Origin: a virus
Taxonomy: Duplodnaviria > Heunggongvirae > Uroviricota > Caudoviricetes
Length of the DNA: 48,979 nucleotides
Virus record (IMG/VR): IMGVR_UViG_2529293142_000029
Span: 1-48,979 of that record
Strand: one strand, 5' to 3'
The notes below the pieces were generated by a model. The model searched no databases and was not told where the DNA came from. It saw nothing but the letters and a program-made list of their open reading frames with translations. This document shows positions 1,600 to 42,104 of the stretch, in pieces; position 1 is the first letter of the stretch, and the number at the start of each line of letters is the position of its first letter. The position numbers and the translations under genes were made by a program.

Positions 1600-2648
1600 T
1601 TGCTTTATCTTCATAACAAGAGGTTATTGATGCTTCGCCACTTAACAGGACTCAGATTTATAGCTGCATTAATGGTTTATTTATGCCATTTAAATACAGA
1701 CTATTTTGGTGTTTTTGTAAAAGAAATGTTTTCCCAGGGATTTATTGGCGTTTCCTTTTTCTTTATTTTATCTGGCTTCATTCTTTCATATTCATATGAA
1801 GACAAGCTAAAAAATGAAGTAACAAGTAAAAGACAGTTTATTCTTTTAAGATTGGCAAGAATTGTTCCAATGCATCTATTATTAGCCATGCCATTTATTT
1901 TACTAACCATTCACTTAAAGAACTTTGATTTTTCAAAAACCTTAACAAATATTTTATTAATGCAAAGTTGGATACCAAAGGAGGATTACTACTTCTCATT
2001 AAATGGTGTATCATGGTCTTTGTCTGATGAGCTGTTTTTTTATTTAATGTTTATTCCGTTGATTTATACATCAATTACAAAGAAAGTAATCACTGCAATA
2101 TCAATTATAACTCTACTATTAACTATATATTTTTTAAAAATTATACAAACAGAAGAACTTAATCACTGGTTATATTATATATTCCCAGTAAGCCGCTTGG
2201 TAGAATTTATTTGCGGCATGATTATTTACGCTTGCTGGAAAAACAGCCGACAGCAGAAAGTCGGCAGCCTTTTGTTTTTAATTTCACTATTACCTCTGCT
2301 AATAGCTATATATTATAGCAACAACATAAATAATAGTCTACGTTATTCGTTATATTATTTACTCCCCATGGTAATATTCTTTACTTCATGCATCTATCTA
2401 AGAAATGGAGTCATTCATACTATCCTCAGTTCAAAAACCCTAGAGCTATTAGGGAAATCATCATTTATTTTTATTTAATTCATCAACCCATTATATTATT
2501 TTGCTTTAAAATCTTTGGACATAATCCCGGACCACTCTATTTAATAGCGCTCCTTGTTATAATAACCATAGTCTCAATCATACTTTATAAATTAGTTGAG
2601 GAGCCTTTAGAGCTGATGCTAAGAAAACGAATTTTAGCAGTAAAATAA
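1600..2648 (+). CDS. Acyltransferase family 3 integral membrane protein (O-antigen O-acetyltransferase-like); frame break at T5 run 2458-2462
   Basis: Multi-TM protein with acyltransferase_3-like motifs; track ORFs 1600-2478 and 2388-2648 join into one protein (...LGKSSFIFYLIHQPII...) if the T run is T6; very AT-rich. Confidence 0.7.
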
Positions 2649-2650
2649 AT

Positions 2651-2674
2651 AAAACCGCGCTATTGCGCGGTTTT
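2651..2674. terminator. Bidirectional rho-independent terminator between convergent acyltransferase and tail-fiber operon
   Basis: AAAACCGCGC-TATT-GCGCGGTTTT perfect hairpin flanked by A and T runs. Confidence 0.65.
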
Positions 2675-2839
2675 ATCTTCAGGCTTGATGAATTTTTTAC
2701 CGTCATATGACCAGCCAACACCAACATCTCCAACACATTTAACTATATCCGCTTTTTCTGGCTTAAACTCTGACTTACCATCCCATACAACAAGATTTGT
2801 AACGACACCATTTTGTACGACTGCATAAATATCGCTCAT
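2660..2839 (-). CDS. Small hypothetical protein (59 aa) downstream of tail fiber; possible fiber assembly factor
   Basis: ATG at 2839 overlaps the fiber stop codon (TAATG); no recognised motif. Confidence 0.35.
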   Translation of the reverse strand: MSDIYAVVQNGVVTNLVVWDGKSEFKPEKADIVKCVGDVGVGWSYDGKKFIKPEDKTAQ

Positions 2840-4035
2840 TACTGATACTCCCACACAAGAATATATCCCTGATTTCCATTATTTCCTGTCGCTGGGCCTG
2901 ATGACGCCTTATTGTATTTACCTGTCCCGCCAATACCGTATATCCCAAGCATAGTAGTGGTTATACTTTCAACGCCAATCGCCTGATCATCACCAAGTCC
3001 AAGTACCCCACATAAATTTGATCGTGAAACTGAATGGAACAGAATCCCTTGCCCTGTAGGAATTGGTGCTTCTGTTGCACTTCCCCCTGAAAATGGAGGT
3101 ACCTGCTGAACTTGAGTTGATCCCCTTCCTCCCGGGCATACAAGCAAATCACCAAAGCTTGTATTCCCGCCGTCACCTCCAGAGCCTCCTGGTCCTGTTC
3201 CTGCTACACCACCGCTTCCAATAGTTACTTGCACGGATTCAGGTATAGACTGATAAAAAAATGCTTTAGCATATGCCCCGTTGGAACCGGCAGGACTTAC
3301 ACCACAGTTACCAGATGCAGTTGCCGACAAATTACCACTGGCACCACCTCCGCCAACGGCTTCCACTATAATTTTCGTTACACCAGGTGATTTGATATAA
3401 GTCCCAGATGATCCAAATGCCTGAACCCCCAAAAGCCTTCCTGTTCCATCACCAAGTGTTAAATATTGTAGAGTTTCCGATACGTTTTTTTTACTTAAAA
3501 TTTCCCTGCCATTTTGAGTCAGCGCTGTCATATCCATTGTTCCGGCACCTGTAAAAAATGCCAACCCATCCGGAATTCCAGAAAGAGATGATAACGCAGT
3601 TAAGTTCTGGTTTTTACCCTGTTTTTCATCAATGCCTAAATATGATATAAGATTTAACCATCCATCACTTACTGAGTTTGGATTATTAGTATTTCCATCG
3701 ACAGTGTTCAAATACAAAGCGCTGCCATCATCTGAAACTATAAGAGCGTATTTTGGATAACCATTAATACCGATAGCAAAATCACTATCAAAAAAGTTTA
3801 TTGCTCCTGCACTAAACCATCTACATAGAGAAGATAGTTCAAACAGAATTTGATTCATATCTTGACCTTTTGGTGGTAATCCCCCTGCAGATTTAAGGAT
3901 CATGGTTATTGGAGGAAATCCTAAGTCATATGATGCTGTATTATCACCTGACGGAGTTGTTGGTAAAATCTCCCCCCTCTGTCCATTGATTCCAAATGGT
4001 TTAGTTTGTTTTTTGGGCGCGTCTGAACGATTCAT
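2839..4035 (-). CDS. Tail fiber protein with glycine-rich C-terminal region
   Basis: Last gene of baseplate operon; Gly-rich repeats; position after J/I-like baseplate genes. Confidence 0.55.
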   Translation of the reverse strand: MNRSDAPKKQTKPFGINGQRGEILPTTPSGDNTASYDLGFPPITMILKSAGGLPPKGQDMNQILFELSSLCRWFSAGAINFFDSDFAIGINGYPKYALIVSDDGSALYLNTVDGNTNNPNSVSDGWLNLISYLGIDEKQGKNQNLTALSSLSGIPDGLAFFTGAGTMDMTALTQNGREILSKKNVSETLQYLTLGDGTGRLLGVQAFGSSGTYIKSPGVTKIIVEAVGGGGASGNLSATASGNCGVSPAGSNGAYAKAFFYQSIPESVQVTIGSGGVAGTGPGGSGGDGGNTSFGDLLVCPGGRGSTQVQQVPPFSGGSATEAPIPTGQGILFHSVSRSNLCGVLGLGDDQAIGVESITTTMLGIYGIGGTGKYNKASSGPATGNNGNQGYILVWEYQ

Positions 4036-39715: not shown

Positions 39716-40135
39716 ATGGAATTACAGGACTGGCGAAAAGAACCTCGTAAAAAGTATTCGAATGAATTCAAACTTCGTATGGTTGAACTGGCATCACAAC
39801 CCGGTGCTTGTGTGGCTCAGATTGCACGAGAAAATGGCGTCAATGATAATGTTATTTTCAAATGGCTCAGACTCTGGCAAAACGAAGGGCGTATATCACG
39901 GCGTCTTCCGGTGACAACCACTTCTGACGCAGGCCTTGAATTATTACCTGTAGAGATAACGCCTGATGAGCCGAAAGAACCGATGGCTGCTCTTACTCCG
40001 CCCTTATCCACTCAGACTACTGTCAGTGCCAGCTCCTGCAAGGTGGAGTTCCGTCACGGTAACATGACGCTGGAAAATCCTTCACCAGAGCTGCTCACTG
40101 TATTGATTCGTGAACTGACCGGGAGGGGAAGATGA
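39716..40135 (+). CDS. tnpA: IS66-family accessory protein TnpA
   Basis: 139 aa; N-terminal KKYSNEFKLRMVELA... HTH typical of IS66 orf1. Confidence 0.8.
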   Translation: MELQDWRKEPRKKYSNEFKLRMVELASQPGACVAQIARENGVNDNVIFKWLRLWQNEGRISRRLPVTTTSDAGLELLPVEITPDEPKEPMAALTPPLSTQTTVSASSCKVEFRHGNMTLENPSPELLTVLIRELTGRGR

Positions 40136-40482
40136 TCTCACTCCCATCCGGTACCCGTATCTGGCTCGTTGCCGGGATAACCGATATGCGTAAGTCTTTC
40201 AACGGGCTGGGTGAACAGGTACAGCATGTGTTAAATGTTAATCCCTTCTCCGGTCACCTGTTTATCTTCCGTGGCCGACGGGGTGACACCGTTAAAATTC
40301 TTTGGGCTGATGCTGATGGTCTGTGCCTGTTCACCAAACGTCTGGAGGAAGGCCAGTTTATCTGGCCTGCGGTGCGTGACGGTAAGGTATCCATTACCCG
40401 CTCGCAACTGGCAATGCTCCTCGATAAGCTGGACTGGCGTCAGCCAAAAACATCCCGCCTTAACGCCCTGACAATGTTGTAA
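40132..40482 (+). CDS. tnpB: IS66-family accessory protein TnpB
   Basis: 116 aa; IWLVAGITDMRKSFNGL...HLFIFRGRRGD typical of IS66 orf2; ATGA overlap with tnpA. Confidence 0.8.
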   Translation: MISLPSGTRIWLVAGITDMRKSFNGLGEQVQHVLNVNPFSGHLFIFRGRRGDTVKILWADADGLCLFTKRLEEGQFIWPAVRDGKVSITRSQLAMLLDKLDWRQPKTSRLNALTML

Positions 40483-40512
40483 AAAACGCCTGGCCGCATT
40501 ATAAAAACGGCC

Positions 40513-42104
40513 ATGAGTCAGAAATACCTCATTCGCATTGCAGAACTGGAAAGCCAGCTCCGTCAGAAAGACCAGCAACTGAGTCTGGTTGAAGAGACGG
40601 CGGCCTTCCTGCGCTCTGCACTGGCACGTGCCGAAGAAAAGATCGAAGAGGATGAACGGGAAATAGAACATCTGCGGGCTCAGATAGAAAAACTGCGCCG
40701 GATGCTGTTCGGTACCCGTTCTGAAAAACTGCGTCGTGAAGTTGAACAGGCTGAGGCCCTGCTGAAACAACGCGAACAGGACAGCGATCGTTGCAGTGGG
40801 CGGGAAGACGATCCACAGGTTCCCCGCCAGTTGCGACAGTCGCGCCATCGTCGTCCGTTACCGGCACACCTTCCCCGTGAAATACACCGTCTGGAGTCTG
40901 AAGAAAGCTGTTGCCCGGAGTGTGGCGGTGAGCTGGATTATCTGGGGGAAGTCAGTGCAGAACAACTGGAACTGGTGAGCAGCGCCCTGAAAGTGATCCG
41001 CACAGAACGGGTAAAAAAGCCTGTACAAAATGTGACTGCATCGTTGAAGCACCGGCGCCGTCCCGCCCGATAGAGCGTGGTATCGCGGGCCCCGGATTAC
41101 TTGCCCGCGTGTTAACGGGAAAATACTGCGAACACCTGCCACTGTATCGTCAGAGTGAAATCTTTGCCCGACAGGGTGTCGAACTGAGCCGTGCATTACT
41201 CTCCAACTGGGTTGACGCGTGCTGCCAGTTAATGACACCGCTGAATGATGCCCTGTACCGTTATGTGATGAATACCCGCAAGCTTCACACTGACGACACA
41301 CCGGTAAAGGTACTGGCACCGGGCCTGAAAAAGACGAAAACAGGGCGCATCTGGACGTATGTCCGGGATGATCGCAATGCGGGTTCGTCATCTCCTCCGG
41401 CGGTCTGGTTCGCGTACTCACCGAACCGGCAGGGGAAACACCCGGAGCAACACCTCCGCCCCTTCCGGGGTATCCTGCAGGCGGATGCGTTCACAGGTTA
41501 TGACAGGCTGTTCAGTGCAGAACGTGAAGGTGGTGCGCTGACAGAAGTTGCGTGCTGGGCCCATGCCCGGAGAAAAATCCACGATGTATACATCAGCAGC
41601 AAAAGTGCGACGGCAGAAGAAGCCCTGAAGCGAATCAGTGAACTGTACGCCATCGAGGATGAAATACGGGGATTACCAGAGTCAGAGCGTCTTGCAGTCA
41701 GACAGCAGCGAAGCAAAGCGTTACTGACGTCGCTGCATGAATGGATGGTGGAGAAGAATGGTACGCTGTCGAAAAAATCCAGACTGGGCGAAGCGTTCAG
41801 CTATGTACTGAATCAGTGGGACGCCCTCTGTTATTACAGTGATGACGGACTGGCGGAGACGGACAATAACACAGCGGAAAGAGCGCTTCGTGCAGTCTGT
41901 CTTGGAAAGAAAAATTACGTGTTCTTCGGTAGCGATCACGGCGGCGAGCGTGGTGCACTGCTGTACGGGCTGATCGGCACCTGCCGTCTGAACGGTATCG
42001 ATCCGGAAGCGTATCTGCGCCATATTCTGAGCGTACTGCCGGAATGGCCCTCCAACCGTGTTGACGAACTCCTGCCATGGAACGTAGTTCTCACCAATAA
42101 ATAA
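40513..42104 (+). CDS. tnpC: IS66-family transposase TnpC; frame break at A6 run 41015-41020
   Basis: Track ORFs 40513-41073 and 41109-42104 join (…RVKKACTKCDCIVEAPAPSRPIERGIAGPGLLARVLTGKYCEH…) if the run is A7. Confidence 0.8.

Follow-up and report, generated by a model that had tools for sequence, protein, structure and literature searches.

Comparison with described systems

Escherichia coli K-12 harbours at argW the cryptic prophage CPS-53/KpLE1, which we take to be a case of pseudogene decay, and decayed prophages of this kind also have deletions, substitutions and insertion sequence (IS) hits in their structural genes. The subject of this report is an E. coli prophage that makes up the content of IMG/VR record IMGVR_UViG_2529293142_000029, 48,979 nt in length (the window, by which is meant the whole stretch of DNA analysed), and in which eight genes are split by frame breaks at homopolymer runs. 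It has in common with CPS-53/KpLE1 an integration site adjoining intS, frameshifts in phage genes and a real IS insertion, but its breaks are not found in other assemblies, and it is complete in other respects.

A closer parallel is found in the homopolymer under-calls of 454 and Ion Torrent sequencing. The features shared with the window are one-base indels confined to homopolymers, at a rate that increases with run length, and false frameshifts in otherwise conserved genes, which other assemblies of that genome do not show. There is no material difference between the two, the window having ten under-calls, and zero over-calls, in 49 kb.

The frame breaks are, with high confidence, consensus errors of 454 reads that under-called homopolymers, the window being the prophage of strain 031 or an assembly from the same reads. 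Flow-based 454 pyrosequencing reads would have under-called homopolymer length and so introduced false frameshifts into the consensus, and the window would be the argW-integrated prophage of STEC (Shiga toxin-producing E. coli) strain 031 (H.I.8, whole-genome shotgun (WGS) project AFDY), or a same-read assembly. The genes for acyltransferase, antirepressor, terminase, HNH endonuclease, NinB, O and cI would then be intact in the real DNA. As it stands, the window sequence points to a prophage lacking repressor, terminase and initiator; the value of the result is practical rather than biological, and its biological interest is low.

Run-length shortfalls in the window

All gaps were listed in alignments of the window with close relatives taken from complete E. 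coli genomes. Ten homopolymer runs, in the genes for acyltransferase, antirepressor, terL, HNH endonuclease (two), ninB, O, cI (two) and IS66 tnpC, are one base short (Table 1), and the longer run is present in every close relative aligned. A preliminary description had listed nine frame breaks. All nine exist, each being a homopolymer one base short of that in close relatives, while a tenth, the T5 at 33405-33409 in the HNH gene, 23 bases from the other site there, had been missed. The need for an extra base, ascribed in that description to most sites, holds for all ten. Three of its positions were off by 2–10 bases: the acyltransferase T5 had been placed at 2458-2462 (10 bases off), the antirepressor run at 10557-10562 and the tnpC run at 41015-41020, instead of the positions given in Table 1.

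Addition of one base per site yields uninterrupted open reading frames (ORFs) of 339 (acyltransferase, which the T5 shortfall cuts to 282), 240 (antirepressor), 506 (TerL), 175 (HNH, both sites mended), 146 (NinB), 295 (O), 231 (cI) and 530 (TnpC) amino acids (aa). These are the lengths of the genes called on intact relatives and on other assemblies.

Nine of the ten sites fall in runs with a true length of at least 6, which comprise 1.05% of the bases, a clustering that is not due to chance. By true run length the shortfall rate was 1/468 (length 4), 0/146 (5), 6/68 (6), 3/13 (7) and 0/2 (8). This trend alone cannot discriminate error from mutation, because real slippage shows the same trend; the two are separated by the absence of substitutions and the uniform direction of the changes.

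Other assemblies of the same prophage

Two further assemblies contain this prophage. The first, AFDY02 (GCA_000225185.3), carries it on contigs AFDY02000040.1, which was reached via the truncated O fragment, and AFDY02000010.1. Four stretches align to window positions 1442-14034, 18012-40058 and 41692-48979, amounting to 41.9 kb with 0 substitutions, and the only differences are 8 one-base gaps, in all of which the window is the shorter. The extra base occurs at eight of the nine sites covered (acyltransferase, antirepressor, terL, both in HNH, ninB and both in cI), and the genes called on AFDY02 at these corrected sites are full length (339, 240, 506, 175, 146 and 231 aa).

The second, NEOK01 (GCA_002133845.1), comes from a separate WGS project and aligns to positions 7146-39757 and 41923-48979 (39.7 kb), again with 0 substitutions. 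It differs from the window by 9 one-base gaps, in the antirepressor, terL, HNH (two), ninB, O and cI (two) genes and in the intergenic run at 8960-8965. The longer run is thus present at all eight of the gene-breaking sites covered, and the gene calls include O of 295 aa and cI of 231 aa.

The contigs of both assemblies stop within the same IS66 element, on both sides, implying the same insertion, and both run on into cscB. Since all three sequences share this element, which has an 8-bp target duplication in the window, the window, AFDY02 and NEOK01 represent one strain or clone. The lesions are not reproducible among them: nine of the ten are absent from AFDY02 and/or NEOK01. No substitution accompanies the 10 indels, and the sole other lesion, the IS66 insertion, is common to all the assemblies.

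The breaks at nine sites are attributed to sequencing error, since the prophage has the missing base and intact genes in other assemblies. On comparison of the sequences, AFDY02 shows eight of them (acyltransferase, antirepressor, terL, two in HNH, ninB and two in cI) to be errors, and NEOK01 reconfirms seven. The earlier verdict of a probable sequencing artefact rather than multi-gene decay has therefore been upheld, all nine testable sites being contradicted by AFDY02 and/or NEOK01.

Source of the reads

AFDY00000000 is the project of LEE (locus of enterocyte effacement)-negative STEC strain 031 (O174:H21; H.I.8 in the appendix), for which 3-kb paired-end libraries were sequenced by 454 Titanium FLX, Celera 6.0 being the assembler; Illumina is not mentioned in the paper (PMC3491183). 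In the Logan assembly of SRR057628, a contig of 11.7 kb matches window positions 13969-25653 with 100% identity, the C5 in terL included, and the 282-aa acyltransferase fragment that results from T5 was found solely in this assembly. The proteins of the window are numbered consecutively in UniParc, from UPI000224263A to UPI0002242645, with the truncated TerL among them. The window thus appears to derive from the original 454 data. A literature search gave nothing useful on SRR057628, on NEOK or on the accession numbers of the assemblies.

The O and tnpC sites

Two of the ten sites deserve separate attention. In AFDY02 the O-like initiator gene retains G5 and is split (204 aa); NEOK01, with 0 mismatches, carries G6 and an O of 295 aa. 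Since AFDY02 keeps G5, NEOK01 is the single assembly that shows the O break to be an apparent error. The run lies within a stretch of C and G runs, CCCCCATTGGGGGGTAGGGGG, where 25 contigs of draft assemblies stop, and the three 204-aa "partial" O proteins recorded on these contigs terminate there in the correct frame. Sequencing or assembly of this region thus seems to be difficult, which may explain why the correction is absent from AFDY02. The current AFDY02 record probably still holds one false frameshift, in O.

The IS66 element, which lies between a gene with an Nmad5 domain and cIII, is a real insertion and not an artefact. Comparison of window positions 39631-42139 with an intact copy on plasmid NZ_LR890653.1 gave 2509 identities in 2510 positions, the sole difference being the tnpC base. 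Of 3386 E. coli records, no more than 10 contain an exact match to the 61-mer with A6, A7 being the norm. Thousands of contigs encode IS66 proteins. The 186-aa tnpC fragment was not found by exact look-up in the protein collection. Runs with a true length of seven, such as the A7 here, are the most error-prone class in the window. By analogy with the other sites, we infer that the tnpC break is likewise an error, and an artefact at this position is considered quite likely.

Alternative explanations

That the breaks in the window are a sequencing artefact rather than the outcome of prophage decay, of programmed frameshifting or of phase variation is very probable. Several points weigh against this reading. 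The call at the O site depends on NEOK01, which could be a clonal sister isolate, and the A6 in tnpC is covered by neither AFDY02 nor NEOK01. The assignment of SRR057628 as the 454 run of strain 031 is suggested by sequence identity, and the identity of the window with the AFDY01 version is putative. A scan of viral_contigs gave no match to the cI allele of the window. Finally, C5 in terL is also found in CP148427.1, GCA_974481825.1 and GCA_974481915.1, and the 110-aa cI fragment together with both cI shortfalls is found on a Logan contig of ERR2213688; such short alleles can therefore arise elsewhere, whether as real mutations or as errors.

Of the other explanations the one that survives best is a mixed case, in which most of the breaks are artefacts and the A6 in tnpC and/or the G5 in O is real, giving a dead transposase or a replication-defective prophage. 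In its favour, the tnpC site is outside the coverage of the other assemblies, copies of tnpC with A6 exist in the 10 E. coli records mentioned above, for example in O104:H4 genomes, and the G5 in O persists in the revised AFDY02. Against this, true runs of A7 and G6 belong to the length classes most often under-called here; NEOK01, identical at every other base, has G6 and the 295-aa product; the IS66 element otherwise equals the intact copy; the 186-aa tnpC fragment is missing even from the Logan assembly of SRR057628; and, as draft assemblies often break at the C/G-run stretch of the O site, a correction step could easily miss it. The mixed case is accordingly regarded as unlikely. It is also rather improbable that one or two of the short runs, G5 in O or A6 in tnpC, are real in strain 031. 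Were this true, the strain would possess either a prophage intact except for a replication defect or an IS66 copy inactivated recently.

Genuine multi-gene decay would require ten real –1 frameshifts, as might occur in a mismatch-repair-deficient lineage. Homopolymers are natural hotspots of real frameshifts too, and CP148427.1 and two European Nucleotide Archive (ENA) assemblies combine the C5 in terL with IS insertions and more –1 frameshifts. Mutator lines, however, gather more base substitutions than indels, and in the window ten indels stand against zero substitutions over approximately 42 kb in comparison with two other assemblies of the same prophage. All ten changes are deletions, and a dead repressor would be hard to maintain when the lytic genes are otherwise intact. 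With the project, moreover, documented as 454-only (PMC3491183), decay is judged very improbable.

Slipped-strand phase variation or a mixed population, in which both lengths coexist and the assemblies picked different alleles, would account for the run lengths that vary between assemblies of one strain and for the three lengths seen at 8960-8965 among assemblies and relatives. The sites, however, lie in unrelated genes, with all shifts in the same direction in a single assembly. Known contingency tracts are much longer than the 4–7 bases of these runs, and we know of no role for the switching of terminase, cI or O. We attach hardly any probability to this explanation.

Programmed frameshifting or transcriptional slippage, as in IS3-family transposases and phage tail chaperones, likewise involves a change of frame where a transposase or phage gene contains an A/T run, but it was rejected, the intact homologues being full-length ORFs in a single frame (e.g. 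the 530-aa TnpC and 506-aa TerL) with no conserved two-frame arrangement.

Short alleles and fragments in other sequences

Among 20 complete E. coli genomes with the terL 61-mer, 19 have C6. The truncated TerL of 365 aa was found, identical, on six contigs that stem from several samples, among them the complete genome CP148427.1. The prophages of CP148427.1, GCA_974481825.1 and GCA_974481915.1 are ca. 98.2% identical to that of the window and, like it, encode the 365-aa protein. Unlike the window, they possess IS3 or IS21 insertions in the head genes and extra –1 homopolymer frameshifts of their own (C4 to C3, G5 to G4 and A4 to A3), which may be real decay or errors of long reads. The match at C5 reflects a shared hotspot and not shared ancestry of the lesion. 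A real, inherited lesion in terL was considered and dropped, AFDY02 and NEOK01 having C6 and no other differences and the prophages that share C5 being more distant and bearing lesions of their own.

The fragment encoded at 23969-25066 is the RefSeq/UniParc entry WP_001382311.1 ("terminase family protein", 365 aa), and that at 35929-36603, from O, is WP_001382325.1 ("replication protein", 224 aa). Proteins apparently created by error thus stand as ordinary entries in public databases. Since the truncated TerL also occurs in unrelated genomes, the presence of a truncated protein elsewhere does not validate a frameshift.

The ERR2213688 contig shows 95–97% identity to the window and has two other –1 shortfalls in O (T5 to T4 and A5 to A4). 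Its cI match was not taken as validation but ascribed either to a data set prone to error or to an event in parallel. Further Logan contigs contain cI genes with breaks at runs close by (P0054, P0055).

A C-terminal ORF of the antirepressor, 154 aa long, recurs in 53 contigs, a Salmonella Cerro record among them. Logan contigs from SRR22926595 and SRR29077818, which match window positions 9232-11447, have T8 where intact relatives have T7; as this was found in both of the contigs fetched, the antirepressor run is also lengthened elsewhere. Exact look-ups of the HNH, ninB, C-terminal cI and N-terminal tnpC fragments gave no match, which may only reflect the choice of start codon.

Organization of the prophage

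The intS gene is followed by the acyltransferase gene, minus-strand tail and head genes of myovirus type, a lambdoid nin/replication/immunity region and the IS66 element (Table 1). Relatives of this prophage are located at the tRNA-Arg adjoining intS; a tRNA scan of the window detected no tRNA. Apart from the single IS66 insertion the prophage is complete.

Table 1. Genes and elements of the window, with the homopolymer runs found to be short and their state in other sequences (L001 to L006, relatives).
Feature	Position	Run in window	Strand	Other sequences and remarks
intS integrase gene	1-1158			
Acyltransferase gene	1630-2648	T5 at 2468-2472	+	T6 in relative L001 and AFDY02000040.1
Intergenic A-run		A6 at 8960-8965	.	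A6 also in AFDY02; A7 in NEOK01; A5 in more distant relatives L001 and L002
Bro-N/P22AR antirepressor gene	10033-10754	T6 at 10551-10556 (coding strand A6)	-	T7 in relative L003, AFDY02 and NEOK01
terL gene	23547-25066	C5 at 24123-24127	-	C6 in relatives L001 and L002, AFDY02 and NEOK01
HNH endonuclease gene, site 1	33249-33774	T6 at 33382-33387	-	T7 in relatives L004, L005 and L006, AFDY02 and NEOK01
HNH endonuclease gene, site 2		T5 at 33405-33409	-	T6 in relatives, AFDY02 and NEOK01
ninB gene	33771-34210	T3 at 34075-34077	-	T4 in relatives L004 and L005, AFDY02 and NEOK01
O-like replication initiator gene	35657-36543	G5 at 36010-36014	-	G6 in relative L006, Logan ERR2213688 contig and NEOK01; G5 in AFDY02
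cI/LexA-family repressor gene, site 1	37605-38298	A5 at 37881-37885	+	A6 in relative L006, AFDY02 and NEOK01
cI gene, site 2		T5 at 37902-37906	+	T6 in relatives, AFDY02 and NEOK01
IS66-family element (tnpA, tnpB, tnpC)	39631-42134		+	8-bp target duplication GAATAAAC at 39623-39630 and 42135-42142
IS66 tnpC gene	40513-42104	A6 at 41013-41018	+	A7 in intact copies
cscB host gene	47732-48979			

The intergenic A-run is a possible eleventh under-call, which breaks no gene. At 28112-28120 a non-coding C6 run (CCCCCCAC) aligned to CCACC in several relatives with a 2-base gap; AFDY02 equals the window at this position, and the difference is therefore ordinary divergence.

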